Assembly: GCA_020720805.1 (NCBI GenBank) | Contig: DYNZ01000003.1 | Location: forward strand, 35,927 to 99,926 | From: Leptospira biflexa | GTDB lineage: Bacteria > Spirochaetota > DYNZ01 | Length of the DNA stretch: 64,000 nucleotides | Direction of reading: 5' to 3' | Shown: positions 6,970 through 64,000 of the stretch, in pieces | Position numbering within the stretch: the first letter of the stretch is position 1 | Layout of the letters: every line of letters starts with the position of its first letter | Position numbers and translations under genes: made by a program | The notes under the pieces: generated by a model | The model's input: only the letters and a program-made list of their open reading frames with translations | Told to the model about the DNA's origin: nothing | Databases searched by the model: none

Positions 6970-7066
6970 TTCTTGACATCGACCTTACCGAAAATGTTTT
7001 TGTTACCTTTTCAGATACCCTAAGGGCAGGAAATCAACAACAAGAGCGCGTTAGATCGCAGCTGAT

Positions 7067-7095
7067 TTGATTGTTATAACAATGATATTTATAAT
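7067..7095 (+). promoter_or_regulatory. sigma70-type promoter of rpmH (TTGATT-17 nt-TATAAT)
   Basis: TTGATT at 7067-7072, a 17-nt spacer, then TATAAT at 7090-7095. It lies ~25 nt upstream of a GGGAG Shine-Dalgarno and the GTG start of rpmH. Confidence 0.6.
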
Positions 7096-7120
7096 TATAG
7101 ATTAATCGGGAGTATTTAAG

Positions 7121-7285
7121 GTGAAACGTACATTTCAACCGAGTAAGTTAAAACGGAAAAAAACTCATGGATTCCGCAGCCGGATGGCTACAGCCAATGG
7201 TCGATTGGTTTTATCTCGTCGTAGAGCAAAAGGCCGTTACAAATTAACCGTTTCTGATGAAAAGAGTTACAAAAGAATTGGATAA
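7121..7285 (+). CDS. rpmH: 50S ribosomal protein L34
   Basis: 54 aa with a GTG start. Missed by the ORF track because it is under 60 aa. The translation [44 protein letters not shown] is near-identical to the L34 consensus, followed by an 8-aa C-terminal extension. A GGGAG Shine-Dalgarno sits 8 nt upstream. Confidence 0.9.
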
Positions 7286-7459
7286 ATATTGATTTTAGGA
7301 AGATTACACCAATATTGAGATTATTGGACAGAGAAAGGAAAGAAGCAGAAGAGTAGGAATCATTCGCCAGCGGGTAAACTGGAATCTGTTCTTGCGTAAG
7401 AGCTGGCTATAACGGTAATATTAGAATCCGTTAGATTTGGATCGGATTAAATTGATAAA

Positions 7460-7993
7460 GTGGCAAAAACTAGAACCTACTCTATACTTAAAAGTAAAAA
7501 GCAAATTCAAAATCTTTTTCAGGATGGGGAACAGTTATTTCATCAGGGTATTTTTTGTAAATTTCATGTACGTCAGGCTCCATTGGATACGCCTCTGCAA
7601 GGCATCATACATCAGCAAAAATACCAAAATAGCATAGTTAGAACAGAAACAGATCGGTTTGACCAAGATTCCCATGAGAATACGAGCCAGAAAAGGGTGT
7701 TGGATGTATCCTATTTTGTTTCTGTTTCTAAAAAGATTCCGACAAAGGTTTTGCGAAACCGCCTGAAAAGAGTGATACGGGCTCATCTTGATGTTGTGCA
7801 TGAGCCATTTTTTAAGGATTTGGAAAGCCGGGGATACAGTGCCCCTGCTTTGGATATAGCCTGGATTGCGAATGGTAAATTTTTGGATTTTTCATATCCG
7901 GAAAGAAATGCGATCATGCAGAATTTGTTGAAAAGAGTTTTGCGTATGTTGGCGCAAAACTCCTCAAGCAAATACCAGCATCCAATAGTATAG
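7460..7993 (+). CDS. rnpA: ribonuclease P protein component
   Basis: GTG start. Conserved RNR-box region [19 protein letters not shown]. Immediately downstream of rpmH as in the canonical cluster. Longer than usual (177 aa), with an insertion. Confidence 0.8.
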
Positions 7994-8006
7994 AGACGAT
8001 TCGTTT

Positions 8007-8312
8007 ATGTTAAAAAAAATGGGGAAAGGGTTTCTGTGCGGATTGTTGTATCTGCTTTCCCTTTTTTTTATCAGTTTAGTAAAATTTTACTCTGTATTCA
8101 TCTCACCTCTCTTACCTGCTTCTTGTCGCTACACTCCAAGCTGTTCTCAGTATATGATCGAGGCTATACGCAAATGGGGTCCTTTTTATGGGATTTTTTT
8201 GGGTAGCCGACGCATTCTGAGCTGCAACCCCTGGGGCGGGAGTGGGCATGACCCAGTTCCGGAACCGCCGGGGCGTCATTGGTATTCCATGTTGCATCAG
8301 GATCGTAATTGA
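8007..8312 (+). CDS. yidD: membrane protein insertion efficiency factor YidD
   Basis: Conserved YSPSCSQY-like motif ([17 protein letters not shown]) and CNPWGGxGxDPVP C-terminus. Confidence 0.85.
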
Positions 8313-8414
8313 TTTTGCTCCTTCTCCGTCTTGATCTCTTTGAAGTGTATTCAATCGCAAGGTAGCGTTATCATTAGAATTATGAAAAATTTCAGGAAGG
8401 AAGCGTAATACGCT

Positions 8415-10241
8415 ATGGATAAAAAAATAGTCATTGCAATCGTTCTATCCGTCATCATCTGGCTGGGTTATTTTTGGATTTTTCCGCCGCCAAAACAGGA
8501 AAATATCGATAAGGGGAAAGCAGACGCTAAGGAGCAGGTAAAAACCAAAGAGGTAAATTCAAAAATAACTGATACGCAGCAAGTAAAGAAAAATATAAAA
8601 AATGTAGAGGCTTTGCTGCAAAAGCAGGGAAGAAAAAAAGCCGGATTGACCGGTTTTGAGATTGATGAGATCTGGCTAAAAAAGAACCAAATTCCTGGTC
8701 AATCTGCCATTACGATGGAGACAGATATGTATCAGGTTCGTTTCCTCTCGGCTGGTGCTCAGGTTGATAGTTTTCGGTATAAAAAATATAAGGAAAAGGA
8801 TGGAAAACCTGTTGAGCTGGTAATACAAAGCAAACACTACCACGCTCCGAAAAGTTGGCCTTTTGCTTTTGATCTAAAAACAACCGATGACTCTTTTCTC
8901 TCAGAAGCAAAATTTATGGATTCGCTCCCTTTTGTCTTAAAGAGGTCAGAAGAAAAGAATAGCACAGTAATGACAGCTGCAATTCAGGGGCGATTGGATG
9001 GAAGCCTGGTTTTGCTGGAGAAGATTTTTCGTTTTCAAAAAGATAAGAATTATTTTGAGTTAGAGCTGCGCATTTCCAATCTCGACAAGAAAAACTTTGT
9101 GGGTCCATTCGAAAACGCCACTCTACAAATTGGTCACCTGGTTGGTCCCGATATTGACCTTGAGGATCCCTATAATCCAATGAAATTTGGGTACCAGGCT
9201 GCTGGTAATTTTCATACTTTGGATAAGCAAGGAGGGTTTTTTTCTGATAAACCACCAGCCCTAACCAAAGCCCCTGAAACAAATATTCAAATGGCCGCTC
9301 TCCACTCTCGCTATTTTTTACTAAGCGTGGTACCAATGCAACCTTTCCGGAAAATTTGGGGCGATACACGTCCTGCAACCGCTTTTCAATTGGGAGGTTT
9401 CCTGTCAAAGGTAGAACTGTCGCCAGGTGAGGTTTATCAAAACCGCTTCTTTGTTTATGCCGGGGAGAAAGAAAAGGATATTTTACAAAGCTTTGTAGCG
9501 GATATTTCCAAAGCAGGGTATAAAGGCGAAGGATTAGCTGATGCTCTAAAGGAAACTATTGATGTTCACTGGTCCATTGAGATTGTTCGGGATTTACTGG
9601 TTAAGCTCCTGCTACTTTTAAACTCGCTTTTTCACAATTATGGACTTTCGATCATTGCTTTTGCGATTATAACTAAGTTAATTTTTTGGCCTTTAAACCA
9701 AAAAAGCGCAGATTCCATGAAAAAAATGTCTGATCTTGCACCTCAGATGAAGGATCTCCGTGAAAAATATAAGGATAATCCTGCTGAAATGAATAAGCGC
9801 ACCATGGAGCTCTACCGGAAGAATAAGGTGAATCCTGCATCAGGATGTTTGCCGATTTTGATTCAGCTTCCGTTTTTTATAGCCCTTTATAGCGCTCTTT
9901 CCAATAGCGCAATATTGTGGAATGCTCCATTTTATGGATGGATTCAGGATTTGTCGATTCCAGATACTGTGGGGCATTTGCCGCAACAGTTGGGAGGAAT
10001 TTCGATCAATATTTTGCCAATAATCATGATCATTACCCAATTTTTTCAGCAAAAACTGACAACCCCTACGACTGCGGATCCAAACCAGAAGCGGATGATG
10101 TACCTGATGCCTGTACTTCTCATTTTCATTTTTTGGCAAATGCCCTCTGGATTGGTTTTGTACTGGAGCGTTCAGAACGTGCTCGCGATTGGACAGCAGG
10201 TATACACGAACCATAAAGGGAAAAAATTGGCAAATGCCTGA
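8415..10241 (+). CDS. yidC: membrane protein insertase YidC
   Basis: 608 aa. N-terminal TM, large periplasmic domain, and a C-terminal 5-TM core carrying the conserved KMxxLxPxxxxLxEKYKDxP ... LPILIQxPxF motifs. Confidence 0.9.
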   Translation: MDKKIVIAIVLSVIIWLGYFWIFPPPKQENIDKGKADAKEQVKTKEVNSKITDTQQVKKNIKNVEALLQKQGRKKAGLTGFEIDEIWLKKNQIPGQSAITMETDMYQVRFLSAGAQVDSFRYKKYKEKDGKPVELVIQSKHYHAPKSWPFAFDLKTTDDSFLSEAKFMDSLPFVLKRSEEKNSTVMTAAIQGRLDGSLVLLEKIFRFQKDKNYFELELRISNLDKKNFVGPFENATLQIGHLVGPDIDLEDPYNPMKFGYQAAGNFHTLDKQGGFFSDKPPALTKAPETNIQMAALHSRYFLLSVVPMQPFRKIWGDTRPATAFQLGGFLSKVELSPGEVYQNRFFVYAGEKEKDILQSFVADISKAGYKGEGLADALKETIDVHWSIEIVRDLLVKLLLLLNSLFHNYGLSIIAFAIITKLIFWPLNQKSADSMKKMSDLAPQMKDLREKYKDNPAEMNKRTMELYRKNKVNPASGCLPILIQLPFFIALYSALSNSAILWNAPFYGWIQDLSIPDTVGHLPQQLGGISINILPIIMIITQFFQQKLTTPTTADPNQKRMMYLMPVLLIFIFWQMPSGLVLYWSVQNVLAIGQQVYTNHKGKKLANA

Positions 10242-10267
10242 GGCAAACATCCAAGGGAGGATAGTTT

Positions 10268-10909
10268 ATGAAAGTTGTAGAAATTGAAGGTAAGACAATT
10301 GAGATAGCCAAGAAAAAGGCTGTTGAACTTTTTAACCTGGATCTCAATGAGATGCGGGTTGAGATTATTGATGAAGGGAAAAGCGGAATTTTCGGTCTGG
10401 GAACTTCCCGTCCAGCCAAAATCAGGGTTTTTTATAATGACCTGACATCAAATGTAACAGAATCGTTAAAGGAGTTTCTTGATACCCTTTTAAAAAAGAT
10501 GGACTTTGATGGATCGGTTTATGAAATCAAGGAAGGAAAGAATAAGGTCTATATTGAATTGCGCAGTAAAAATTCTGCTTTGATTATTGGTAAACGCGGA
10601 AAAACCCTTGAGGCTATCCAGTTGCTCTGTAATATGTACATTTCCCATATAAATAGCGCATTAGCCAGCAAGAGAATTATTATTGATATCGAAAATTACC
10701 GACGCAAGCGCGAGAGTGCCTTATCTCGGCTCGCAAAAATTTCAGCTCAAAGTGTAATTAAGTCCGGAAAACCAAAGTTATTGGAACCCATGAATCCATT
10801 TGAACGTAGGTTGATTCATCTGTCTCTTCAAAATGATAATCGAGTAGCAACTGTAAGCGAAGGCAATGGTATTTATAAAAGGGTCCGTATCGAACCACGT
10901 CAAAAGTAA
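10268..10909 (+). CDS. jag: Jag/KhpB RNA-binding protein (Jag_N, KH and R3H domains)
   Basis: 213 aa. R3H motif NPFERRLIHLSLQ near the C-terminus. Position between yidC and mnmE is conserved. Confidence 0.85.
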   Translation: MKVVEIEGKTIEIAKKKAVELFNLDLNEMRVEIIDEGKSGIFGLGTSRPAKIRVFYNDLTSNVTESLKEFLDTLLKKMDFDGSVYEIKEGKNKVYIELRSKNSALIIGKRGKTLEAIQLLCNMYISHINSALASKRIIIDIENYRRKRESALSRLAKISAQSVIKSGKPKLLEPMNPFERRLIHLSLQNDNRVATVSEGNGIYKRVRIEPRQK

Positions 10910-10915
10910 ATTTTT

Positions 10916-12298
10916 ATGAAGCCTGCATCTCGTAGCCAGGATACCATTTGCGCTCCAGCCACCCCCGCCGGGCGGGGGGCTGTTTCAATGATCCGCATCT
11001 CCGGCTCCCGTACCAGAGAAATCCTTACCCAGATTTTTTCAGTAACAAAAATTGAAATCCGAAAGGCGACCTATGGCCATATTTTAGGACCGAAAGGGAA
11101 AATTGATGATGTAATTTTGGTATTTTATGGCGCCAAGCGTAGTTTTACCACAGAGGACATGGCAGAAATTTTTTGCCATGGCAATCCGGTGATTGTCAGA
11201 GAAATTATTGATCTGTTAACCTCTCTTGGGGTCCGCCCTGCTGAAAAGGGAGAGTTTACGGAGCGGGCCTTTCTTGGTGGCAGAATCGACCTGACCCAGG
11301 CAGAAGCAGTCGACGCATTAATCCGGGCACAAAGCCGTAGCGAGTATAGAATTTGGTTAAAGCAGTCGAGCGGGTTTTTTCGGGAAAAAATTTACTCACT
11401 AAGAGAGCGGATGATCGATTTATTGGCTGATATAGAAGCGGAAATTGATTTTGCCGATGCTGAGGAGGTTTTCGTCAGACTGGAAGAGAAGGTTGATTAT
11501 GCTGGTGAGATAAACGAATTCGTTCAAAAAATTTTACGGTATGGGCGATTGGGAGATAAAATTCGGGAAGGGGTACAGGTTGTGATAGCTGGAGAGCCGA
11601 ATGTTGGCAAATCCAGCATTATGAATCTTTTGTTAAATGAGGAGCGATCTATTGTAACAGATATTCCGGGTACGACACGCGATATTGTGTCGGGATCTAT
11701 CGAGATTGGTGCCCATATTTTTTTTCTTATGGATACAGCTGGATTGCGCGAAAGCTTAGAACCTGTAGAAAAAATTGGTATCGAGCGAACCTTCAGCGCT
11801 CTGGAGCGCGCAGACGTTGTCCTTTATGTTGTTGATGGATCTCAAGTTATTGATTCTAGCCTGAATCGAATGAGTGCCAACTTTCATCAGAAAAGGCATA
11901 TCATTTTAATAAACAAAATGGATCTGGTACTTGAAGATCAGCATTCTTCTATTCGGGATACCTTTCAAACTATGTTTCCTGGAACCACATTTATCTTTTT
12001 TTCTGCGACATCCGGAATGGGTATTCCCGAATTGGAGAGATTTTTATCTGAAACTGCTGAATTACCGGAAGAGGATAGAGAAGAAATCGTAATGGTTCAG
12101 GAACGTGTTAAAAATTTACTACTGCTTATCCAGGAAAAGGTCGATGAATTTATCAACCTAAGCCAGAATCAATCTCCTCAGGAGATCCAGGCAATTCCTC
12201 TTCGAGAAGCAATCCAGTATCTCGGGGAAATAAGCGGTAGAATCGGCAATGAGGAAATATTAGGTTCCATTTTTCGTCGGTTTTGCATTGGTAAATAG
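10916..12298 (+). CDS. mnmE: tRNA modification GTPase MnmE
   Basis: 460 aa. G-domain motifs GEPNVGKSS, DTAG and NKMD, and the C-terminal CIGK tetrapeptide typical of MnmE/TrmE. Confidence 0.9.
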   Translation: MKPASRSQDTICAPATPAGRGAVSMIRISGSRTREILTQIFSVTKIEIRKATYGHILGPKGKIDDVILVFYGAKRSFTTEDMAEIFCHGNPVIVREIIDLLTSLGVRPAEKGEFTERAFLGGRIDLTQAEAVDALIRAQSRSEYRIWLKQSSGFFREKIYSLRERMIDLLADIEAEIDFADAEEVFVRLEEKVDYAGEINEFVQKILRYGRLGDKIREGVQVVIAGEPNVGKSSIMNLLLNEERSIVTDIPGTTRDIVSGSIEIGAHIFFLMDTAGLRESLEPVEKIGIERTFSALERADVVLYVVDGSQVIDSSLNRMSANFHQKRHIILINKMDLVLEDQHSSIRDTFQTMFPGTTFIFFSATSGMGIPELERFLSETAELPEEDREEIVMVQERVKNLLLLIQEKVDEFINLSQNQSPQEIQAIPLREAIQYLGEISGRIGNEEILGSIFRRFCIGK

Positions 12299-12525: not shown

Positions 12526-13713
12526 ATGGCTAATCATCAGCAAGGTGCAGATTCTCCGGAAAGAGCAATCGTTAAGCATAGATCACAGAGAAAATTTCAG
12601 AATATTTTGGATATTGCTCAGGTTCTTTATATAATACGGAATCATCTGAAGGGAAAGAATCTGTTTTTTAAAGGATACCCTCAGGATTATACAACAAATA
12701 TCTATAATATTATTGATGACTCCGTAATTGAGATCGAGGTTCCGGCTATTATAAAAATCGAACCTCAAATGACCATCTATGCAATTCTTAATAAATTTGT
12801 GGAGATTGATCTATCCTATAAAGAGCGGCTAAGCAACGATCGCTATCTCTTTTTGATTGTCGGGTCGAATATCGCCAAATCAAGCCGGGAAAATACCCGC
12901 ATTCCGATGGAACCGGGCGATGCTTTTATAAACCATATAACGGCAAGTAAAAATATTATTAAAGCGGATAAATACAATATCCCCACCTCTGTGAAAGTCA
13001 TCATGCATCAATTTCAGGCAGTTCTGGAAAGGAGGGCAGATGAGGTTTATATCTCTACTTTTGATGAGAAAGATCCCAAGCACCGTTTAATCCAGCGAAG
13101 CAACAAGATCTACTATATTCGAGATGCTCAGGATATCTCCTCCTTTGACCCGCTCAATGAAGATTTTATTGATATACGCGCCTATTTGCAAAATAATTTT
13201 GAGCAGGCTCAGCGTTACTATAAAAACCATGGGATTGTGTCAGAGATTCTATCATCCATTTTGTATGTTGATCTAAATCAGGATGCTATTCCCTTGGGAG
13301 TCATTCATTTGATTTCAAAGAGCAAACCCCTGGAAATTGAGCATGTCCTTGAAGCAAAAGAACTCTCATTTGAAATCGTCGATAGAATTCGAACAGCCAA
13401 TACCATGGTAATCAACAAGCGGCAACCTGTCCTGGATATCGGACGCGGCGGTGCGAAGATCCTGATAACAGATTTTGAATTAGCTCAGGTTTTAGTACAC
13501 CAGAGTGGATTTAGCTTTGATCTCTACTTTCGGTTTCAGGCGCCAATCACCCTATATGTAGAGATTCGATCACTACACTGGAATGAACAGAAGCATCTAA
13601 CCCTTGGTGTGGTTTTTTCAGGACGCTCTTCACGTACAGAAGATATAAAAAGACTGCATGAATTTCTGGAACCTTTAGAAAAGGATGCCAAAAAAAGATT
13701 GCTTCAGGAGTAG
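12526..13713 (+). CDS. PilZ-like domain protein (putative c-di-GMP receptor), degenerate motifs
   Basis: 395 aa. The C-terminal segment KRQPVLDIGRGGAKI resembles PilZ motif II (DxSxGG). An N-terminal HRSQRKF ... IIDDSVIEIEV segment resembles a second, YcgR-N-like PilZ module. No other recognisable domain. Confidence 0.4.
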   Translation: MANHQQGADSPERAIVKHRSQRKFQNILDIAQVLYIIRNHLKGKNLFFKGYPQDYTTNIYNIIDDSVIEIEVPAIIKIEPQMTIYAILNKFVEIDLSYKERLSNDRYLFLIVGSNIAKSSRENTRIPMEPGDAFINHITASKNIIKADKYNIPTSVKVIMHQFQAVLERRADEVYISTFDEKDPKHRLIQRSNKIYYIRDAQDISSFDPLNEDFIDIRAYLQNNFEQAQRYYKNHGIVSEILSSILYVDLNQDAIPLGVIHLISKSKPLEIEHVLEAKELSFEIVDRIRTANTMVINKRQPVLDIGRGGAKILITDFELAQVLVHQSGFSFDLYFRFQAPITLYVEIRSLHWNEQKHLTLGVVFSGRSSRTEDIKRLHEFLEPLEKDAKKRLLQE

Positions 13714-34721: not shown

Positions 34722-36305
34722 TTATCTCTTTCGCCAGAATGGGCCATAGTGCTTTCCTGGATAGAAGGAGAAGTAGCGTTCCTCCTTTGGCATCTCTCTT
34801 ATAAAGATATTCGCAGAGCTGCGCTCAAACGGGGGTGTGGTCGGTGATTTTCCATAAAACTGCAGAGGTAACCATTGCAGATGAAAAAAAGGATCTTTTC
34901 CTGTTCGGCCATGAAATCCCTGGTAGTAGGTTTTTTCTGATTGTAAAGGATCTTTGCCTTCATCGCTTTTCACCAAACCAGGTTCCTGCCACCTTACTAT
35001 TTTTTTCCATTCTAGAGCCCGATGTTCGGAGAAATCGAGTAAGAAATTTTGGTCGGCTCCTAAGGCAACACTGGCCAGCAACTGACCTGGTAAATTCCAG
35101 TTTTGCGGTGGGGTGATCACCTTAAATTTCCCCTTTTTCATCAGAGGAAACCTATCCTTGGCAAAACCTAAAGCATTGATCATAGACGATTCGGTTTTTA
35201 CAGGAATACTTATAGCTTGAAGATCTTTTTGGTTTAGGGGAATATTGGGGATAGTCACATTCGAACCGTCAGACCAGAATCCCTTGGCCACATAGAGGAT
35301 AGGATGCCCATTCACCGAGTTGATGTTGTCCCAATGTGTATCGACCAAAATGGAGTTGTGTCCGATTGTAGCAATTCGAATTGGCTGAAATTGAGGATCC
35401 AGAAGAACGCTATATCCCTGCCAGCCTCCTTGATGCTGGTTTCCAAGATACGATGGGCCTGAGGTGGAATCATACCAAAACCAGTAGGATAAAACATAGC
35501 CCTTGGAATTTTTATTATCATACCAGTAATAGTCCGGTTGGAAATCCTCCAATCGACCGGTCTGCTCGCCAGTATAGTGAGTGGCCATGGGGCGTATATG
35601 ATAATAGAGAAAGGGTGAGCTCAACTCCTTTAATTTGGCGTGCTTGCTTGAATCTCCAAGCCGTAGATAGGATCCCTGATGGGGTGGGGCTCCGGCACGG
35701 TTTTTCTTTGCCACCTGATAGATTTCTTTACTGTGATAAAAGAAATATTTTTCAATATTGGATGGCAAGAACTCCTTGTCCTTTGCAAAAACCAATATCG
35801 GCGCATATTTAACAGCCACAGCCTCCGCAGTACTTGATGAAATGGGGTTTTCCATGGGTAAGAGGCGAATATCGCGAACGGTTTCCACCGGAATAGAGGG
35901 AAGAGCATTTTTGTGGTTGAGATACTCTTTGGTAAACTCCCAGAAAGGGTTATATCCTGGCGAGTACCGCAGATACTTATTTTGAAATTGCTGTTGGTAA
36001 TTGATCCAGGCTATTTGTGTGGCCACTATTTTTTCGGGAGCAATATCGAGAATTATATTAAAAAAATAGAGACCATGGTCGTTAGAGCTTGTTTGGTAAA
36101 TTTTATAATCGATTTTTCCCTGAATATCCTTAAAGAAAATACGAAGCTGCAACAGTGCTCCGTCTACCTTCCCTCCGCGTTCGTCATAAATAAATCCTTC
36201 TCTGCGAAATTGGTATGGCTGTAGCGCTTGTACAGCTGATAGAGTGCAAAAAAGAAATAGGAGTGTGTACCATAATTTTACATAGATTTTATTGGATTTC
36301 ACCAT
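34722..36305 (-). CDS. secreted hypothetical protein with Vps62/DUF946-like N-terminal region
   Basis: 527 aa. Signal peptide. VKYAPILVFAKDKEFLPSNIEKYFF resembles the DUF946 (Vps62) signature. Trp/Tyr-rich. Ends 7 bp before the pdxB start, so it is likely co-transcribed. Confidence 0.55.
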   Translation of the reverse strand: MVKSNKIYVKLWYTLLFLFCTLSAVQALQPYQFRREGFIYDERGGKVDGALLQLRIFFKDIQGKIDYKIYQTSSNDHGLYFFNIILDIAPEKIVATQIAWINYQQQFQNKYLRYSPGYNPFWEFTKEYLNHKNALPSIPVETVRDIRLLPMENPISSSTAEAVAVKYAPILVFAKDKEFLPSNIEKYFFYHSKEIYQVAKKNRAGAPPHQGSYLRLGDSSKHAKLKELSSPFLYYHIRPMATHYTGEQTGRLEDFQPDYYWYDNKNSKGYVLSYWFWYDSTSGPSYLGNQHQGGWQGYSVLLDPQFQPIRIATIGHNSILVDTHWDNINSVNGHPILYVAKGFWSDGSNVTIPNIPLNQKDLQAISIPVKTESSMINALGFAKDRFPLMKKGKFKVITPPQNWNLPGQLLASVALGADQNFLLDFSEHRALEWKKIVRWQEPGLVKSDEGKDPLQSEKTYYQGFHGRTGKDPFFHLQWLPLQFYGKSPTTPPFERSSANIFIREMPKEERYFSFYPGKHYGPFWRKR

Positions 36306-37468: not shown

Positions 37469-38170
37469 TTATTGTTCCATTTCCTGCAGCAGGCGCGCTG
37501 GAATTTTCAGACCTAAACGCTGTGACCAGAAAATCAGTCTGATCCGAATGGATTTCATGTTCATGCGCCTGTCCCAAAGGGCACCAATACCAGAAAGTTT
37601 GGAATTTGGCTGAAGAATTCTCAGGAGCATTTTTTGAACTGTTTCCCCCTCTTTAGCCTTGCATTGCCAAAGTTGTTCGCCAATACTGAGAATGGTTTGA
37701 TTGGTGTTATAATTTTCGCGTATAATGAGGTCAATATCATGTTGAATCTGCTCTTCATCGGTACGCAACATAGCAGAGATGGTTTCCAGACGAAAAAAAA
37801 GGAATGATTCAATAAATTTTAGCATGAATTCTGCGTTTTCTTTTTTGGCTATCTGGTAAGTTTTGATCAAGCCATCGACCATCTGTAGGGTCAGAAAAGA
37901 GTATCTGGTTTTTCGTTCAACTTTGGCATGCCGGATATCGTTTAAAAAAGAGTTATGCTCGGATTTTCCATTTCGAATATAGAAAAATCTTAAATTGGTG
38001 ACGCAGTATCCCCTTGGCGTTTTGCTAAAATCGCTAAGTCCCATGTAGGAGTTGTCAGAAAAAAAAAGTAAAATCGTTTCTCCTCGCGAAAGAATTTCCT
38101 GTTTTTCTAGAAATTCCCGTATGGCCAATGGTATGTCGCTTTTTTTGCGAATAGAACCGGCTTTGATCAT
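37469..38170 (-). CDS. hypothetical protein, possible bacterial PH-like N-terminal domain
   Basis: 233 aa, no confident domain. Residues ~30-110 resemble a bPH/GRAM-like beta sandwich. Overlaps the upstream gene by 4 bp (ATGA). Confidence 0.5.
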   Translation of the reverse strand: MIKAGSIRKKSDIPLAIREFLEKQEILSRGETILLFFSDNSYMGLSDFSKTPRGYCVTNLRFFYIRNGKSEHNSFLNDIRHAKVERKTRYSFLTLQMVDGLIKTYQIAKKENAEFMLKFIESFLFFRLETISAMLRTDEEQIQHDIDLIIRENYNTNQTILSIGEQLWQCKAKEGETVQKMLLRILQPNSKLSGIGALWDRRMNMKSIRIRLIFWSQRLGLKIPARLLQEMEQ

Positions 38171-38859
38171 ACTGTTTTATTGTATTGCAGGGCTAAGGGT
38201 AAAAAACGGTTATGGGTCGTCTTGATGACCCGTTCTTCGCTGTTGATAAGATTGGAAATTTTTTGAAAGCCGCTTTCGATTTGGAAGGCCCAGATCTCTG
38301 CTGAAGCGTTTATCTCCTGAATTGGTATGGCAGGGTTATAACTCCAGGTAAAAGTTGGCTGGCTCTCAAGCCAAAGAGAAAGTGCCTTCCTTTCAGCTTC
38401 TAAGGTAAGCCCTGTATCGCATACCTTAATGTGGTTGCTATCAATTAATAATATGGCAAATCCGGCCATTTTATCAACATTTCCATTCTTGATGTAAATG
38501 ACACCATCTAATTTCTTGTCTCGGGCGATCTGAAAAGCCATCCAGTCTATATATTTTTCCCAGTCGCGGGGATTAATTTTTTTTGCTCTTTTTTCCAGCC
38601 GTTCCGTGTCGAGAAGAATGATAGATTTATCAAGAGGTTGAATTGTATCGGACAAAAAATTTATTAATGGATTATTGTCGAAAACGGTGGTTTGGAAAAT
38701 ATTTTCTGTTTCGGAGCCCTTCCAGTTTTGTGTCGCCGTAAAATTTTTTTGCGACTTTGGGGTGAATCGAAACGGAAAAAAGGGAGCCTGGTTTAATCTA
38801 TCGGAAAAAAGAGCATAGAATACCGGCTGGGTGATGGCTCGGGCGAGATAATCATCCAT
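38167..38859 (-). CDS. hypothetical protein
   Basis: 230 aa, no recognisable motif. First gene of a 3-gene minus-strand operon, downstream of a 430-bp AT-rich divergent promoter region. Confidence 0.5.
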   Translation of the reverse strand: MDDYLARAITQPVFYALFSDRLNQAPFFPFRFTPKSQKNFTATQNWKGSETENIFQTTVFDNNPLINFLSDTIQPLDKSIILLDTERLEKRAKKINPRDWEKYIDWMAFQIARDKKLDGVIYIKNGNVDKMAGFAILLIDSNHIKVCDTGLTLEAERKALSLWLESQPTFTWSYNPAIPIQEINASAEIWAFQIESGFQKISNLINSEERVIKTTHNRFLPLALQYNKTV

Positions 38860-43779: not shown

Positions 43780-44526
43780 ATGTCCTCCGACCTTAACAAC
43801 TGGCTTGCCGAGTTAAATCTGGGCAGGCCAGAGCTGCTTCATAAACTGGTTCAGTTTCAGACCCTTTTTTTGCATCATAACAGCCAGATTAATTTAAGCG
43901 CGATTCGCGACCGTGAAGGTTTCGAGCGCTATCACCTTCTGGATTCACTTTGCGCCTACCCATTTTTATCTAGCAGTTCGGGATACCGAACGATACTGGA
44001 TATGGGAACCGGTGGTGGTTTGCCAGGGTTGCCTTTAGCTTTGGCCTTACCGGATCGTAATTTTGTTTTACTGGACGCGACAGAAAAAAAAATTCTGCGG
44101 GTCAAGGCAATGATTCACGAGTTGCAGGTCGAAAATGCCGTGGCTGAATATGCTAGAGTAGAATCATGGCGGCAAAAGGCTTCCAGGCACAATCAATTTG
44201 ATCTATTGGTTAGCAGGGCCATGTCAGAAATGGATCTACTCTTTGAGTTGGGATATCCTTTGCTGAAAGAGGGAGGGGCATTTTTATTTTATCAGACAGC
44301 AGATCATTTGCAACGGCTTTCGATATTGGAAGCCGTTGCCGGAAAATATTCGGATTATAAATTGGAGAATATCCCATATCCCGCCTCTTTTCAACATTTT
44401 CTTGGCAACCGAACTCTGATCCTCCTTCATGTGATCAAGAAGAAGGCATTTACTGAGCGTACCTATGCCGCTATGGCAAAAGATTCTCAGGTCAGGCATC
44501 TTATTTTTAAAAAAGCAAAGAAATAA
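43780..44526 (+). CDS. rsmG: 16S rRNA (guanine527-N7)-methyltransferase
   Basis: 248 aa. ILDMGTGGGLPGLPLALALPD SAM-binding motif. Position directly upstream of parA-parB. Confidence 0.85.
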   Translation: MSSDLNNWLAELNLGRPELLHKLVQFQTLFLHHNSQINLSAIRDREGFERYHLLDSLCAYPFLSSSSGYRTILDMGTGGGLPGLPLALALPDRNFVLLDATEKKILRVKAMIHELQVENAVAEYARVESWRQKASRHNQFDLLVSRAMSEMDLLFELGYPLLKEGGAFLFYQTADHLQRLSILEAVAGKYSDYKLENIPYPASFQHFLGNRTLILLHVIKKKAFTERTYAAMAKDSQVRHLIFKKAKK

Positions 44527-44639
44527 CAATTCCTCCTTTGAATAAGAAATTATGTTGCCAATGATAGGGCAAAAATAAGGTTTTTTACTCTATCTATTAA
44601 TTTTTGGATAGCAACTTTATCCGGAAAAAGAGTATTCCT

Positions 44640-45410
44640 ATGGGGCGAGCCATATCTATCAGCAATCAAAAAGGCGGAGTGGGAAAGACCACGACTGCCA
44701 TTAATTTAGCTTCGTATCTAGCAGAGTTGGGGAAAAAAGTCCTCCTTATCGACATCGACCCACAGGGCAACGCGGGCAGTGGTTTAGGGGTTGATAAGGA
44801 TTCGCTCAAGAAGACCATATACAATGTGATTATCGATAATTTGCCGATGGAAGAGGTGATTCAGCGCACCACGATTGAGAATCTTGATATGGTACCCGCG
44901 AATATTCATCTTTCAGGTGCCCAGATTGAACTTTTGGATGAAGAGGATCGAGAGTACCGACTTAAAAGCGCACTGGCTCCGATTAAGGATAAATATGATT
45001 TTATATTAATGGATAATCCGCCCGCGCTCGGCATTTTAACTTTAAATAGCCTGACCGCTTCTGATTCGATATTAATTCCTTTGCAATGCGAATACTATGC
45101 CTTAGAGGGGTTGGGGCAATTGCTAAAAATCGTGCAGATGGTGCAAAAAAAATTAAATCAAAAATTGGTCATTGATGGCGTTTTGCTGACGATGTATGAC
45201 AGCCGGACAAATCTTGCGAATCAGGTTGTCCAGGATGTAAAAGAGTATTTTAAGGATAAGGTTTTTGAGGCAATTGTTCCAAGAAATGTTCGACTTTCAG
45301 AAGCACCATCCTTTGGTAAACCCATTAATCTTTATGATCGTTCCTCTTTAGGTGCATTAAGCTATGAAAAACTCGCGCGAGAGGTAATTGAGCGTGCCGG
45401 CAGTATTTAA
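44640..45410 (+). CDS. parA: chromosome partitioning ATPase ParA/Soj
   Basis: Deviant Walker A NQKGGVGKTT. The ORF-track start 44604 probably over-extends; ATG 44640 (MGRAISISNQKGG) is typical. Confidence 0.9.
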   Translation: MGRAISISNQKGGVGKTTTAINLASYLAELGKKVLLIDIDPQGNAGSGLGVDKDSLKKTIYNVIIDNLPMEEVIQRTTIENLDMVPANIHLSGAQIELLDEEDREYRLKSALAPIKDKYDFILMDNPPALGILTLNSLTASDSILIPLQCEYYALEGLGQLLKIVQMVQKKLNQKLVIDGVLLTMYDSRTNLANQVVQDVKEYFKDKVFEAIVPRNVRLSEAPSFGKPINLYDRSSLGALSYEKLAREVIERAGSI

Positions 45411-46290
45411 GAAAAAAGGGCTAGGTAAGGGTATCGGAGCCATCATCGGCTCAGATCCTGTGGATAAAATCCTTGAAGGGAGTGGATCGGAAGCGAAAAA
45501 TGAACCGCTGGATATTCCTTTGAATAGTATTGAACCAAATCCACATCAGCCGAGGGAGAATTTCGATGAAGAATCTTTGCGTGGCCTAGCTGACTCCATT
45601 AAAAGCGTAGGGATCATTAACCCGATCACTGTAGAGCAACATGGAAATCGTTTTCACATTATCACAGGCGAACGTCGTTTTCGTGCTGCTCGAATTGCCG
45701 GTTTGTTGACCATTCCCGCATTAATCCGGAATGTGGATGAACTACAGAACCGTTCTATGGCACTGATTGAGAATATCCAGCGGGAGGAGCTTAATGCCAT
45801 TGAAGAGGCTAAGGCTTATAAAATACTCATAGAGCGTTTTCAGCTGAAGCAGCAGGATGTTGCTGCCAAAGTGGGTAAAGATCGAAGTACCATTACCAAT
45901 ATCATGCGTCTTTTGCAACTACCACAGCAGATTCAAAATGAATTGGTACACAAAGAGATTAGTCATGGTCATGCACGGGCGCTTCTTGCCCTGGAACACG
46001 AATCTGCCCAACTTTCTGCGCTAAAGGATGTGATGGAGAATGGTCTTTCGGTTCGCCAACTGGAAAAGAATATCCGCGAAAATCGTTACCAGGAGCGAGC
46101 TGCCAGGGAGAAAAAGGAGTCGAGAGCAAAATCAAAAGACGCGCAGATAAAACATCTCGAAGAGGAGTTGCGCTCCGTGCTTGGTACCAAAGTAGAGATT
46201 CAGCATAAAGGGAAGAAGGGTACGATTGCGATTCACTACTATTCTCTGGAGGATTTTGATAGGATTCGAGAATTATTAATACCGGACTGA
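45388..46290 (+). CDS. parB: chromosome partitioning protein ParB/Spo0J
   Basis: 300 aa. [14 protein letters not shown]-terminus, GERRFRAA ParB box and an HTH region. Confidence 0.9.
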
Positions 46291-52280: not shown

Positions 52281-53627
52281 CTAAGAGGATTCATCGATAG
52301 GTTCAACAATCATCTCCATCCCTTGTACGGCAACGACACGAACTTTATTCCCAGGGTATAGGTTCTCTTTTGACGTGGAAGAAGAGGATGCGTTCCATGT
52401 CTCTCCGTGCAGGAAGATCTTTCCGGATTTTTCCGGTAGTATCTCCTTGGTTACCTTTGCCTTTTGGCCGACTAACCCCTCAAGACCTGTAATTGGTCTG
52501 CGCAGGGCTGTTTTTCCAATAAAATAAAGAATAAAGCCAAGAAAAGCAGAGAGGGTGATGGCTAGAGAGACAACCAGCAGCCACGAAACATTCAGGTCTG
52601 ACTCCGGAGTGTCAAACAGGAATAGGGCCCCTAAAACAAAACTGATGATTCCTCCTGAACCGAGTATGCCAAAACTAGGAACCATAAATTCCGCTGAGAG
52701 TAGTAAAATTGCCAGGATAATTAGAGCCAACCCACCATAGTTTATGGGAAGAATCTGCAGGCTTACTAAACCGAGTAAGAAGGAGATACCGCCCAAAACT
52801 CCCGGGAAATAGGTTCCGGGATGGTAGATCTCGGCAATGATGCCAATAGAACCCAATGATAACAGCAAGAGTGCGATATTGGGGATGCTAAGGATATTGA
52901 GAATTTTTTGTACCAGGGTCATCTCCTTTGGCACCTGGATAAGATTTTCTGTGTGCAATTGACGGGTTTTTCCGAGAACTGTAACTGTACGACCATGAAC
53001 CTGTTTTAATAGCGATTGGTAATCGGTGGCGATGAGATCGACAACACCCCTCTCTTTGGCCTTTTCGGCTGTTAAAGAGTGGCTATATTTTACAGCCTCA
53101 ATGGCCCATTTCGCGTTTCGCCCGGTTTTATTGGCAATGGCTTCAATAAATGAGGAGGCATAGTTTTCTACTTTTTTGGCCATATCCTTACCCCCTTCCT
53201 CTTGAATATCTTTGCCGGAGCCAGAAACGGGGTGGGCAGAACCAATACTGGTGCCTGGAGCCATCGCGGCCACATGTGCAGCCATGGTTATAAAAACACC
53301 TGCAGATGTGGCACTTGCACCCGCAGGGGCAATTAGAATGAGTACAGGGATAGGGGAATTCAGGATGGTCTGGACAATCTCTTTTGTGGAAGAGAGTAAC
53401 CCACCTGGCGTGTCCAGTTCGATCAGTATAAGTTCATGATGGCTTGCTGTTGCAAATCGGATGCCTTTCTGGATGTAATCTGCTGAAGCGGGATTGATTC
53501 CTCCTTTTATTTGAAGGTAGGTATATGTCCTTACCTGGTTGGCAGCAGGCAAGAGGGCGACAAAGAGAATCAGTTGCATCATAAATATCCAGAATACAGG
53601 TAAAAATTTTCTCATTTTTATTCCCAT
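52281..53627 (-). CDS. NfeD-family membrane-bound ClpP-class serine protease (stomatin-operon partner protein)
   Basis: 448 aa. N-terminal signal/TM. ClpP-like protease domain (TPGGLLSSTKEIV ... catalytic Ser region). Central multi-TM segment. C-terminal OB-fold-like domain. Confidence 0.8.
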   Translation of the reverse strand: MGIKMRKFLPVFWIFMMQLILFVALLPAANQVRTYTYLQIKGGINPASADYIQKGIRFATASHHELILIELDTPGGLLSSTKEIVQTILNSPIPVLILIAPAGASATSAGVFITMAAHVAAMAPGTSIGSAHPVSGSGKDIQEEGGKDMAKKVENYASSFIEAIANKTGRNAKWAIEAVKYSHSLTAEKAKERGVVDLIATDYQSLLKQVHGRTVTVLGKTRQLHTENLIQVPKEMTLVQKILNILSIPNIALLLLSLGSIGIIAEIYHPGTYFPGVLGGISFLLGLVSLQILPINYGGLALIILAILLLSAEFMVPSFGILGSGGIISFVLGALFLFDTPESDLNVSWLLVVSLAITLSAFLGFILYFIGKTALRRPITGLEGLVGQKAKVTKEILPEKSGKIFLHGETWNASSSSTSKENLYPGNKVRVVAVQGMEMIVEPIDESS

Positions 53628-53815
53628 CGCTTCTCTTCTATGTTGTTAGTTTCCAATTTGACAGATTTTTTTGCCTTTTAAATCATTTTTATTAATTTAT
53701 TTGAATAATAACTGATTTTTTTCGTTTTTATTATAAGCAGCTAACCTAATGGTTTTTTATGTGAATGAGGATCTTACAAAAAATTTTCCATATATACCGA
53801 AAAAAATTCGGTCGA

Positions 53816-53844
53816 CTCACACGATGTGAGGAGTGCGAAGAGCA
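53816..53844. repeat. copy A of a ~29-bp conserved element containing the palindrome CTCACA-cga-TGTGAG
   Basis: 26 of 29 positions identical to copy B (62730-62758). Lies ~300 bp upstream of the HD-GYP regulator gene. A related second half-element, GCACTTTCTTCGCAGTATAAATC, sits at 54082-54104. Confidence 0.6.
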
Positions 53845-54120
53845 GGATTGCTCAAGTGTCGATTTTGCTAGGGCAGCAAAAAATCGACCCGGATTTGACA
53901 GGGCAGCTTTTTGTGACGTCCTGTCACAGCTGCATAAGTTACATCCTGTAACTCAGATGTCAAAAATCCGATCCCATGGCATCGCCTTGGGAGACCAAAG
54001 CTTTTTGGATAATGAAACTTTTGCTTAACTTAGTTTATCCCGAGCGTTGTCGAGGGATCGAAGCACTAGAAAGGGCGAAAAGCACTTTCTTCGCAGTATA
54101 AATCAAGGTCAGAACAAGAT

Positions 54121-55205
54121 ATGATTCGAAAGCCAATACAAACCCTTATCAAGCAGGCATCCATTCTCATCGTTGACGATCAGATGACAAATATTGTGTT
54201 GTTAGAGAAGATTCTGCGCTCGGACGGTTACCAGAATATTACCTCCACAACGCAACCCATAGATGTTCTGGAACTATATATGGCAAATCAGTTTGATATT
54301 GTTTTACTTGATCTGGAAATGCCCCGGTTGAATGGCTTTGAGGTTTTGGAACAACTTCAGAATTTTGAGAGAGACAATTATGTTCCTGTCCTTGTGGTAA
54401 CTGCCCAGAGCGAAGAGGACATTCGCCTTCAGGCACTGCAGCAGGGAGCCAAGGATTTTATCACCAAACCCTACAATAGTCTGGAGGTTTTAAACCGGAC
54501 CCGAAATATGATCGAGGTGCGCATTCTCAATAAGCAGCTTTTGAATCAAAATCGTATCCTGGAAGAGCGGGTTCTGGCGAGAACCCAGGAGCTGGAGAAT
54601 ACCCGTTTTGAGGTGATTCAGCGTTTAGCCAGAGCCGCGGAATACCGTGATCAGGAGACCGGCAACCATATTTTGAGGATGAGCCACGTAAGCAGGCTTT
54701 TGGCAGAGAAGTTGGGATGGCAGCAATATGATCTGGAGGTTATTTAAATGCGAGTTCACTTCATGATATAGGTAAAATTGGGATTCCTGACAAAATCCTA
54801 CTGAAATCAGGTCCGCTTGATCCGCAGGAATGGGAGATTATGAAGACTCATGTTATCATTGGAGCGGAAATTATGGAAAATGCAAGCCATACACTGCTGC
54901 AGATGGCAAAGACCATTGCCTTAACCCATCATGAAAAGTGGGATGGTAGCGGGTATCCCTTTGGACTCAAGGGAGAAGAAATTCCTATGGCAGGCAGGAT
55001 TGCTGCGCTTGCGGATGTGTTTGATGCTCTCTTATCTGTAAGACCATATAAGAGATCCTGGTCTCTTGACGAAGCGGTGACGGAGATAAAAAACCAGAGC
55101 GGGCGGCATTTTGATCCTCGCTTGGTGGATATCTTTTTGGAAAACCAGGTGGCTATTCTTGCTATTTATCAGAAATTTCGTGATAGTAGTTTAGAAAATG
55201 GATAG
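54121..55205 (+). pseudogene. REC-HD-GYP response regulator (RpfG-like c-di-GMP phosphodiesterase) interrupted by a single-nucleotide frameshift
   Basis: ORF 54121-54747 (frame 1) encodes the REC domain and the start of HD-GYP, then hits TAA at 54745. The HD-GYP signature LHDIGKIGIPDKILLK is readable in frame 3 from 54747 and continues into ORF 54840-55205 (HHEKWDGSGYP). The frames join with a 1-nt indel in TATTTAAAT (54741-54749). Confidence 0.8.
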
Positions 55206-55235
55206 TCTAAGTTAGTGCCTGGCAGGTTATTTTAA

Positions 55236-55276
55236 TAAAAAAAGCTGCACCTAGGAACGTTTCCACAGAGTGCAGC
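55236..55276 (-). terminator. Rho-independent terminator of fba
   Basis: On the minus strand, stem GCTGCAC / GTGCAGC (55244-55250 and 55270-55276) is followed by a U-tract from the plus-strand A8 run (55236-55243). Confidence 0.7.
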
Positions 55277-55287
55277 CATCAAACATC

Positions 55288-56268
55288 TTAAGCGCGTCCT
55301 GCGCTGCCAAGCACCGCTTCGTTTTTATGCCGAATAATTTTTACCAGCTCTTCTCGGGCCGGCCCTAGGTATTTGCGCGGATCGAATTCGTCGAGTTTTT
55401 CTGCCAGAACCTTTCGGATCAGAGCTGTAAATGCTAATCGTCCATCGCTGTCGATGTTGATTTTACATACTGCTGATTTTGCTGCCCGGCGCAACTGCTC
55501 TTCGGGTACTCCCGCTGCGTTTTCAATGCGTCCCCCATATTGATTAATCATGGCTACATATTCAGGTAAGACAGATGAGGCTCCATGTAGAACTATAGGA
55601 AATCCGGGTATCCTTTTTTCTACCTCATCAAGGATATCAAAACGTAGAGGAGGTGGATTTTCGCCTGGTTTGACCTTGAATTTATAGGCGCCATGCGATG
55701 TTCCTATGGAAATGGCGAGGCTATCCACGCCAGTCCTTTTTACAAACTCTTCGACCTCTTCGGGCTTAGTGTAGTGGCTTACTTCCGAGGATACCTCATC
55801 TTCAATGCCAGCCAGAACTCCCAATTCAGCCTCGACGGTCACATCATGGGCATGGGCGTACTCAACCACCTTTTTGGTAAGAGCAATATTTTCATCAAAG
55901 GAGTGGTGAGAAGCATCAATCATAACAGAAGAGAAGCCGGTATCCACACATGACTTGCAAAGTTCGTAGCTGTCGCCATGATCAAGATGCAGGGCTATAG
56001 GAATATTTCCACCCATCTCCCGCATCATTGCCACAGCTCCCATAGCCATATATTGGAGGAGGGTCTGGTTAGCATAATCGCGCGCCCCCTTGGAAACCTG
56101 CAGTATGACAGGGGAACGAGATTCAGTACATGCTCTGACAATTGCCTGCAATTGCTCCATGTTATTAAAGTTGTAAGCCGGTATGGCATATCCGCCGGCC
56201 ATGGCCTTTTGAAACATCTCTTTGGTATTTACCAGACCTAACTCAGAATAATGCGTGGTCTTGGACAT
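55288..56268 (-). CDS. fba: class II fructose-bisphosphate aldolase
   Basis: 326 aa. GGYAIPAYNFNNMEQ and PVILQVSKGA motifs. Zn-binding His residues. Confidence 0.9.
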   Translation of the reverse strand: MSKTTHYSELGLVNTKEMFQKAMAGGYAIPAYNFNNMEQLQAIVRACTESRSPVILQVSKGARDYANQTLLQYMAMGAVAMMREMGGNIPIALHLDHGDSYELCKSCVDTGFSSVMIDASHHSFDENIALTKKVVEYAHAHDVTVEAELGVLAGIEDEVSSEVSHYTKPEEVEEFVKRTGVDSLAISIGTSHGAYKFKVKPGENPPPLRFDILDEVEKRIPGFPIVLHGASSVLPEYVAMINQYGGRIENAAGVPEEQLRRAAKSAVCKINIDSDGRLAFTALIRKVLAEKLDEFDPRKYLGPAREELVKIIRHKNEAVLGSAGRA

Positions 56269-62404: not shown

Positions 62405-62729
62405 ATCTTCTCCTTGGTTATTATAATACTGAAATTTTTTTGTATCTTTCCGGGCTTTCCTGGTAGGTCATTTCGATGCTGAGGTTCCATTTGAAACAAA
62501 GCCAATATCAGTCCGATACAAAGCAAAGACATTCCAATGATCTGAAGCCGCAGAAAAAAGGCACAGCTTCGATTTTGTGTAACATTTTTGAGGCCTAAAA
62601 TCATATTTTTCTCCATAGTGTCAAGAACTTTGAAGCAAACAGACAAATACTCATCGGATTGGAACATCAGGGCTCAGAAAATTATAAAGAGGTTGTTGTG
62701 ACCTTAAACCGAAATGAAATTGGTGGAAG

Positions 62730-62780
62730 GTCACACGATGTGAGGTGTGCGAAGGGCACTTTCCTTGCAGAATAGAAATC
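62730..62780. repeat. copy B of the conserved palindrome-containing element, with the second half-element adjacent
   Basis: GTCACACGATGTGAGGTGTGCGAAGGGCA (62730-62758) is immediately followed by GCACTTTCCTTGCAGAATAGAAATC (62756-62780). Located 80-130 bp upstream of purH. Confidence 0.6.
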
Positions 62781-62860
62781 GGTTGCAAAAAACCCTTAGT
62801 CAGAAAAAGTTGTAAAAAGGTACAAAAAAAAAGTATAATAAGGAATAATTAGAAAAGGAA

Positions 62861-64000
62861 ATGGGTATGATAAAGATTAAAAGGGCTTTGATCTCTGTTT
62901 GGGACAAGCACAACCTTGAAGAGTTGGTAAAAACTTTGGCCCACCACAATGTCGAGATTATCTCAACAGGAGGTACTCTTCAGAAGATCCGTGAAATGGG
63001 CGTAGAGGTGCATTCCATTGGGAAATTTACCCAATTTCCAGAGATGCTCGATGGGCGAGTCAAAACGTTACATCCCAAAGTTCATGGCGGCATTTTGCAT
63101 ATGCGCGATAACGAAGAGCATCTAAAGCAGATCCTGGAGCATAGTATCGTTCCCATTGATCTTGTGGTGGTAAATTTATACCCCTTTGTTCAAACTATAT
63201 CGCAGCAGGATGTAACGTTTGAGGATGCGATCGAGAATATTGATATTGGCGGCCCTACGATGTTGCGCGCAGCTGCAAAAAATCATAAATTTGTGGCTGC
63301 TTTGATGCATCCTCAGGATTATCCAAAAATTATTGAGGAATTAAATAAAAATCAGGGAGCCTTAAGCCATGAAACCAGGTTTGAATTGGCGCGAAAGGTT
63401 TTTAATTATACCGCATCCTATGATGCGGCCATTTCTGCGTACCTGAATGATCTTCAAGGAGAGGGACAACCCCGTTATCTCAATCTGGCTTTTGAGAAGA
63501 GACAGGAGTTGCGCTATGGAGAGAACCCTCACCAGAAAGCCACATTGTATGCGGATCAGCTCAGCAAAGAGGGGAGTCTTGTAAACGCCCAGCAACTCCA
63601 AGGAAAAGAGCTTTCTTTTAATAATTTGCTGGATTTTGATGCTGCCCTGAATATTGTGCAGGAGTTTGCCGAGCCTTGTGTGGTGATTATCAAACACAAT
63701 AATCCAGCAGGAGTTGCTATCGGTGAAAATAATACATCCTTGGCAGATGTGTTTGCAGATGCCTGGTCCTGTGACCCTGTTAGCGCATTTGGCTCCATTA
63801 TTGCCATCAATCGTGAGGTAGATAGGGCGACGGCAGATCTTGTGAATCAATATTTTGTCGAGGGGATCATCGCGCCCTCTTTTTCTACCCAGGCGCTAGA
63901 TGTTTTGGGCAAAAAAAAGAATATTCGGTTACTGGCTACTGGGCACCCCTTGCGGGCTGCAAAGCATTATGATGTCAAAAGGATTAACGGAGGGATCCTT
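62861..64000 (+). CDS. purH: bifunctional AICAR transformylase / IMP cyclohydrolase (5' partial, runs off the window end)
   Basis: N-terminal MGS-like domain motifs (RALISVWDK, STGGT, DGRVKTLHPKVHGGIL). The ORF has no stop within the window and so is absent from the ORF track. Confidence 0.85.
   Translation, partial: MGMIKIKRALISVWDKHNLEELVKTLAHHNVEIISTGGTLQKIREMGVEVHSIGKFTQFPEMLDGRVKTLHPKVHGGILHMRDNEEHLKQILEHSIVPIDLVVVNLYPFVQTISQQDVTFEDAIENIDIGGPTMLRAAAKNHKFVAALMHPQDYPKIIEELNKNQGALSHETRFELARKVFNYTASYDAAISAYLNDLQGEGQPRYLNLAFEKRQELRYGENPHQKATLYADQLSKEGSLVNAQQLQGKELSFNNLLDFDAALNIVQEFAEPCVVIIKHNNPAGVAIGENNTSLADVFADAWSCDPVSAFGSIIAINREVDRATADLVNQYFVEGIIAPSFSTQALDVLGKKKNIRLLATGHPLRAAKHYDVKRINGGIL

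Follow-up and report, generated by a model that had tools for sequence, protein, structure and literature searches.

Among solved structures, the closest counterpart of the protein described here is PmGH from Persephonella marina (PDB 4MCW/4MDZ/4ME4; E=1.6e-64 over query residues 132-356), which is an active HD-GYP c-di-GMP phosphodiesterase (4MCW). The HD dyad and the HHExxDGxGYP loop are common to PmGH and to the protein obtained here after a one-base repair of the gene. PmGH is, however, no response regulator and its gene is intact, whereas in the present case the domain is split across two reading frames after the first two metal ligands. Furthermore, the N-terminal domain of PmGH is GAF-like and not a REC domain.

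The architecture found here, REC plus HD-GYP, is shared with RpfG from Xanthomonas and PA4781 from Pseudomonas aeruginosa (PDB 4R8Z). The HD-GYP domain of the latter is matched with E=7e-36, and the gene described here differs from it by the frameshift. V-cGAP3 from Vibrio cholerae (PDB 5Z7C), a 3'3'-cGAMP-specific HD-GYP protein, also matches in fold and motifs (E=9e-37), although its HD-GYP architecture is a tandem one and its substrate is not the same. Due to this difference, the ancestral substrate of the present protein cannot be fixed by sequence alone; the ancestral output was that of a cyclic-dinucleotide phosphodiesterase, most likely with c-di-GMP as substrate. As to the lesion itself, the comparison is with ordinary bacterial frameshift pseudogenes, which likewise display a single 1-nt indel, a premature stop and recognisable halves, lack recoding signals and have intact homologues elsewhere. 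No feature distinguishes the gene described here from these pseudogenes, and it appears to be very young, being free of secondary lesions.

The disrupted REC-HD-GYP gene lies on the plus strand at 54121-55205 of the 64-kb stretch of DNA that was analysed as a whole (the window), and occupies two reading frames with a 1-nt frame change between them (Table 1). The upstream open reading frame, ORF1, contains the REC domain (aa 15-125, nt 54163-54495), followed by a helical linker and the first HD-GYP helices with E179 and H183, and ends with ...GWQQYDLEVI directly before the stop codon. Frame 3 is open from 54732 onwards and reads YLNASSLHDIGKIGIPD...THHEKWDGSGYP...DVFDAL... until the stop codon TAG at 55203-55205, while frame 2 contains many stops across the locus. 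The end of the frame-1 ORF with its coordinates and the frame-3 motifs, as given in the initial annotation, are all present in the sequence, and so is TATTTAAAT, which had been placed at 54741-54749.

Table 1. Coordinates of the disrupted regulator gene, its parts, its neighbours and the DUF1577 gene within the window.
Feature	Position	Strand	Remarks
DUF1577 protein	12526-13713	+	395 aa; full-length Pfam match, E=1.4e-40
NfeD	52281-53627	-	neighbour
Divergent intergenic region NfeD / regulator	53628..54120		493 bp; AT-rich, 38% GC
Upstream ORF (ORF1)	54121..54747	+	frame 1; ATG 54121; 208 aa; TAA 54745-54747
Frameshift junction ATTTA	54742..54746	+	gap-free alignment and contiguous HD_5 match only upon one-base repair
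Rest of HD-GYP domain	54744..55205	+	frame 3; 153 codons, then TAG
HD dyad	54762-54767	+	frame 3; LHDIGK at 54759-54776
Longest start-initiated frame-3 ORF	54840..55205	+	121 aa; without H215/D216
HHEKWDGSGYP motif	54927-54959	+	frame 3; Asp of DVFDAL (D299) further downstream
Class II fructose-bisphosphate aldolase	55288-56268	-	neighbour; followed by pstBACS

The Pfam matches divide in the same way as the reading frames. In ORF1, Response_reg (PF00072) is found at residues 15-125 with E=3.5e-27 (95.2 bits, cut-off 30.2). The frame-3 part matches HD_5 (PF13487) with E=2.6e-30 (105.8 bits), but only at profile positions 45-170 of 170. When one base is inserted, a single HD_5 match covering positions 4-170 of 170 is obtained in addition to REC (E=1.5e-33, 116.4 bits, cut-off 27.2), so that the profile, divided into 1-44 and 45-170 by the frame change, is rejoined. 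Thus, a single domain is divided by the frame change, and this cannot be chance, since a 106-bit match in an open frame of 154 codons continues the truncated domain of ORF1.

The functional residues are found on both sides of the break. In the alignment of homologues, the REC residues D19, D20, D64, T94 and K116 occupy invariant columns, E179 and H183 occupy invariant or nearly invariant ones, and the residues of the HD dyad and of the HHEKWDGSGYP motif are all located in invariant columns. We take the metal ligands of PmGH to correspond to E179, H183, H215, D216, H244, H270, H271 and D299. All eight of these positions are kept in the repaired protein according to the alignment to 4MCW. Since the break lies between H183 and H215, two of the ligands fall into ORF1, while six ligands together with the GYP loop belong to the part that is out of frame.

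A continuous coding sequence for an active enzyme is not found at this locus. ORF1 is terminated at its TAA codon, and in frame 3 no start codon (ATG, GTG or TTG) is present upstream of the HD dyad; the first one is located at 54840, past the dyad. Without such a start, no catalytically competent protein can be produced from the locus, and the phosphodiesterase activity would have been lost through the lesion. The downstream fragment was annotated as a gene of its own, with 121 aa by JGI and 110 aa by NCBI and Logan. However, the 121-aa fragment lacks H215 and D216 and cannot form the metal centre alone, and an independently translated functional C-terminal half was therefore rejected.

The initial annotation described the regulator as RpfG-like, which is true of the domain architecture only, since it is an orphan regulator without a histidine kinase near. 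Within 5 kb on either side, no gene of the rpfC/rpfF type and no histidine-kinase gene was found, nor was one found among the scanned ORFs of the window. The best NCBIfam model, NF053512 for the NosR-family REC c-di-GMP phosphodiesterase, scores 161.2 bits and stays below its cut-off of 400. Among 5.8 billion protein clusters searched, even the nearest homologues of full length reach no more than about 60% identity. The best homologues, at 50-60% identity, are scattered over Gamma- and Betaproteobacteria, Nitrospinota and Nitrospirota, and this scatter does not allow an origin to be inferred.

The position of the lesion can be confined to a few nucleotides. Here, the Ile codon ATT of frame 1 (54742-54744) and the Leu codon TTA of frame 3 (54744-54746) overlap at T54744, and this overlap of one T means that exactly one base is absent within 54742-54746. 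Inserting one base within this interval yields a continuous protein of 361 aa, and in the alignment of this protein with 12 full-length homologues (351-372 aa) the junction is free of gaps. The repaired junction EVILNASSLHDIGK is co-linear with the homologue consensus E.LLNASPMHDIGK, and the predicted junction peptide of the restored frame is DLEVILNASSLHDIGK (...DLEVILNASS...). The Pfam matches and the alignment of the 12 homologues hence bear out the earlier description of a REC plus HD-GYP regulator that is broken by a -1 frame change and mended by one base. That description had also placed the indel in a T/A run. A T3/A3 run is indeed present; however, a loss from the T run is not required, because any base within 54742-54746 is equivalent.

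The ancestral junction, which was deduced from distant homologues only, as an intact allele or an orthologue above about 60% identity was not found, could for example have read ATT-TTA, ATG-TTA or ATT-CTA. The missing base may be a fourth T, but the third base of ATG, ATC or ATA and the first base of CTA would fit equally well. A homopolymer slip is a possible origin of such a deletion. A 13-nt near-repeat was also observed, with AGGTTATTTAAAT at the frameshift site (54737-54749) and AGGTTATTTTAAT at 55224-55236, 20 nt beyond the stop codon. This second copy bears the four-T version that would mend the gene. However, chance alone should produce about one match of this kind in 1.9 kb of AT-rich sequence, and the near-repeat is treated as a coincidence.

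Whether the missing base is a sequencing or assembly error or a genuine mutation had been left open in the initial annotation. The 208-aa product is recorded in three assemblies, namely in the JGI metagenome 3300000234 (99 kb contig), in the NCBI MAG GCA_974334805.1 (145 kb contig) and in the Logan assembly of SRR1560848 (11 kb contig). All three contigs are identical to the window, including the frameshift site, with 0 mismatches over 5.2-10.6 kb. IMG 3300000234 corresponds to sample GS09-5, which is sulfidic biofilm collected at Grotta Sulfurea (Frasassi caves). Its reads were generated on Illumina HiSeq 2000, and the JGI assembly was built with SOAPdenovo, Newbler and minimus2 (PMC4288042). 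The three assemblies represent one Frasassi cave population and probably have the read set in common. Their concordance across three pipelines excludes an artefact of an assembler, but with common reads a systematic error of the reads would still be possible.

A consensus error of this kind, behind which the real gene would be intact and encode 361 aa, would fit the short T3/A3 run at the site, the fully preserved downstream frame with its catalytic residues kept and no surplus of substitutions, and the possible descent of all three assemblies from a single library. Against this stands not only the identical sequence obtained through the three pipelines, but also the type of reads, since Illumina HiSeq 2000 has a low indel rate at 3-base runs and seldom gives systematic indels there. 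In addition, about 50 other genes of the window were surveyed by a Pfam scan of the ORFs together with the contig records, and no second broken gene was seen. Where these other genes gave a Pfam match, it covered the profile largely or completely, as in GltB (1-420 of 420) and IspG (1-343 of 343). The absence of any other frameshift among these genes indicates that the assembly is not prone to indels. A sequencing error, the principal competing explanation, is therefore considered unlikely. We regard a genuine and recent 1-nt deletion, which inactivates an orphan REC-HD-GYP phosphodiesterase gene, as the probable explanation, and the question has moved in this direction due to the three assemblies, the Illumina reads and the lack of another broken gene. 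The deletion is presumably supported at the level of the reads.

A comparison with homologues leads to the same reading. Using tblastn, 160 homologous loci taken from GTDB genomes and JGI metagenomes were inspected, and 158 of them gave single in-frame, full-length matches. None of these is frameshifted. The two remaining loci are incomplete and do not give full-length single matches (one stops at a contig end), and they are not frameshifted either. Since none of the 158 homologues carries the frame change and no other broken gene was seen in the window, the lesion is private to this population and is neither a feature of the family nor the result of a poor assembly. An intact allele, or an orthologue more than about 60% identical, was searched for in 5.8 billion protein clusters, the GTDB species genomes and the JGI metagenome collection, and none was returned. 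In the latter collection, a protein-based scan reached a maximum of 57% identity, and a DNA pattern that spanned the site and allowed a gap gave 0 matches, in a collection that apparently does not contain this sample.

The deletion might also be polymorphic, with intact and frameshifted alleles coexisting in the biofilm and the assemblers reporting the allele of the majority. The metagenome stems from a natural biofilm and the mutation appears to be very young, both of which would suit such a mixture. Nevertheless, the Logan contig passes through the site unbroken, and an exact-sequence cluster look-up among 15 billion predicted proteins returned no intact 361-aa variant. Coexisting alleles are thus quite improbable, and they would represent a sub-case of the genuine deletion instead of a true alternative to it. 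The Logan contig ends at window position 54068, beside a hairpin at 54075-54094 (GCGAAGAAAGTGCTTTTCGC) and about 30 nt upstream of the start codon of the regulator. This contig end may reflect strain variation or a break in coverage.

A functional role of the split gene was considered as well. The two frames could be joined by -1 ribosomal frameshifting or by transcriptional slippage, or the truncated REC-plus-linker product could have acquired a separate role, such as that of a phosphate sink, be it alone or together with the 121-aa fragment. It is in line with such an arrangement that the REC domain of ORF1 is complete with all phospho-acceptor residues kept, that the frame is restored exactly when the ribosome shifts by -1 on reaching the stop, and that GGGAG is present just upstream of the ATG at 54840, although this GGGAG belongs to the conserved coding motif EWEIM. 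The initial annotation had judged programmed frameshifting to be unlikely, and this judgement holds. The zero frame reads G_GTT_ATT_TAA and contains no X_XXY_YYZ heptamer, and the tRNA-Ile in the P-site, having slipped by -1 from AUU to UAU, would re-pair at one of three positions only. The T3/A3 run is below the length needed for transcriptional slippage. Furthermore, the RNA of 54730-54850 folds with -23.8 kcal/mol, shuffled sequences averaging -26.5 (z=+0.75), and displays no extra stability, and the frame shift is not conserved, as seen from the 0 of 158 complete homologous loci. Programmed -1 frameshifting and transcriptional slippage were rejected on these grounds, within the reach of sequence analysis. 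The fragments themselves argue against a function too, as the HD dyad is missing from the 121-aa fragment and no more than two of the eight metal ligands are present in ORF1. Taken together, a functional arrangement is extremely improbable.

It is conceivable that the cell still produces and phosphorylates the 208-aa product, which would consist of REC, the helical linker and two HD-GYP helices. That it would act as a stand-alone receiver competing for phosphoryl groups, or that a leaky -1 shift at ATT-TAA would supply a trace of phosphodiesterase, is a remote prospect; if either were true, the locus would represent a newly made regulatory variant and not dead DNA.

The age of the genuine deletion, which we prefer, was approached through those columns of a 119-sequence alignment in which conservation is 93% or higher. 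Deviations from these columns occur at 4 of 59 positions before the break and at 6 of 64 after it. All of them are conservative and none is catalytic (V/L, Y/F, A/G, Q/N, S/P, L/M, M/L, H/S, L/T and S/A), and relaxed selection downstream of the break is not detectable in this comparison. The downstream half carries no further disabling change, and its 153 codons are still open. Since the catalytic and phospho-acceptor residues are intact, the downstream frame is open and no other lesion is seen, a genuine deletion would have to be very recent, while the same pattern would also be expected from a sequencing error. The history proposed from this would begin with the loss of one nucleotide within 54742-54746 of an orphan REC-HD-GYP gene. 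Translation from the ATG at 54121 would then stop at the TAA codon and yield only the receiver, the linker and two of the eight metal ligands. The six ligands H215, D216, H244, H270, H271 and D299 and the GYP loop would be left stranded in the -1 frame.

The surroundings of the gene suggest that it occupies a variable slot. The nearest relative found is the 112-kb Logan contig ERR15087767_1454, on which the aldolase is 86% identical. Here, the order IDH-pstSCAB-aldolase-[slot]-NfeD-sigma70-Band_7-HIT is kept throughout the neighbourhood. However, the slot of the relative (positions 6976-7975 of our locus L086) contains a gene for a 188-aa Cupin_5 protein, in contrast to the REC-HD-GYP gene in the corresponding region of the window (53628-55287). 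Neither a Cupin_5 remnant in the window, including the intergenic region between NfeD and the regulator, nor a REC-HD-GYP remnant in the relative was found. It is this exchange, Cupin_5 in the relative and the regulator here, that defines the slot as variable.

The intergenic region presumably holds the promoters of both NfeD and the regulator. At the NfeD end, T-rich direct repeats of 16-20 nt are present at 53600-53735, three of them TTTTCTCATTTTTATT-like and two ACAGATTTTTTTGCCTTTTA-like, which could be promoter or regulator sites or mere AT-rich sequence. A recent horizontal transfer of the regulator gene was considered and rejected, since there is no compositional signal (GC of the gene 0.45/0.43 compared to 0.43 in the window) and no convincing flanking repeats are present. 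For the adjacent aldolase, no relative above 86% identity was found. Its best named matches belong to Nitrospirota (Thermodesulfovibrionia or Magnetobacterium-like, 80-83%), with Desulfobacterota-type sequences being nearly equal, and three further aldolase relatives show no synteny with the window. Judged by its aldolase, the bacterium is probably Nitrospirota-like.

The loss of a phosphodiesterase had been linked in the initial annotation to raised c-di-GMP levels and to a PilZ-like protein encoded at 12526-13713. This protein, a full-length DUF1577 match, gives no match to PilZ (PF07238) even at E<=5. Nevertheless, the earlier designation has a basis, since DUF1577 was described as a PilZN domain plus a GAF-like ('GAZ') domain inserted in PilZ, constituting a c-di-GMP-binding YcgR family in Leptospira (PMC11800159, 2025). 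According to the same study, such DUF1577-type YcgR receptors were not found outside Spirochaetota (PMC11800159). The genome that encodes the present DUF1577 protein does not look like that of a spirochaete. Homologues of the DUF1577 protein are few, with 9 clusters at 32-58% identity, one of which is named Candidatus Hydrogenedentota. Its gene is located 41 kb away from the regulator, without linkage. That the lesion raises c-di-GMP and is thereby connected to this protein is speculation. Nothing firm can be said on the cellular c-di-GMP levels, because the other GGDEF, EAL and HD-GYP genes of the genome count as well.

Several further features of the window were observed. The gene sets rnpA-yidD-yidC-jag-mnmE (7460-12298) and gidB-parA-parB (43780-46290) are present, both of which are usually located near the replication origin. 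On the minus strand, 643-3795 encodes a protein of 1050 aa that ends in a caspase-like CHAT domain and also matches TPR_8, though below the threshold (21 bits, threshold 25.7). Also on the minus strand, a 527-aa ORF (34722-36305) and two neighbouring ORFs, each some 230 aa long (37469-38859), have no Pfam match. Past the isocitrate dehydrogenase gene, a region of about 950 bp (62405-63361) contains no convincing ORF, and Rfam and tRNA scans of the 64-kb window yielded no hits.

The importance of the locus hardly extends beyond its correct annotation. The 208-aa and 110/121-aa ORFs, which were called separately by JGI, NCBI and Logan, belong together and should be recorded as a single, disrupted REC-HD-GYP gene. 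Reconstructions of the metabolism or signalling of the uncultured Frasassi bacterium should not include this locus among the functional c-di-GMP phosphodiesterases. If the deletion is genuine, it would represent a small case of a redundant signalling gene that is being lost in a natural population.
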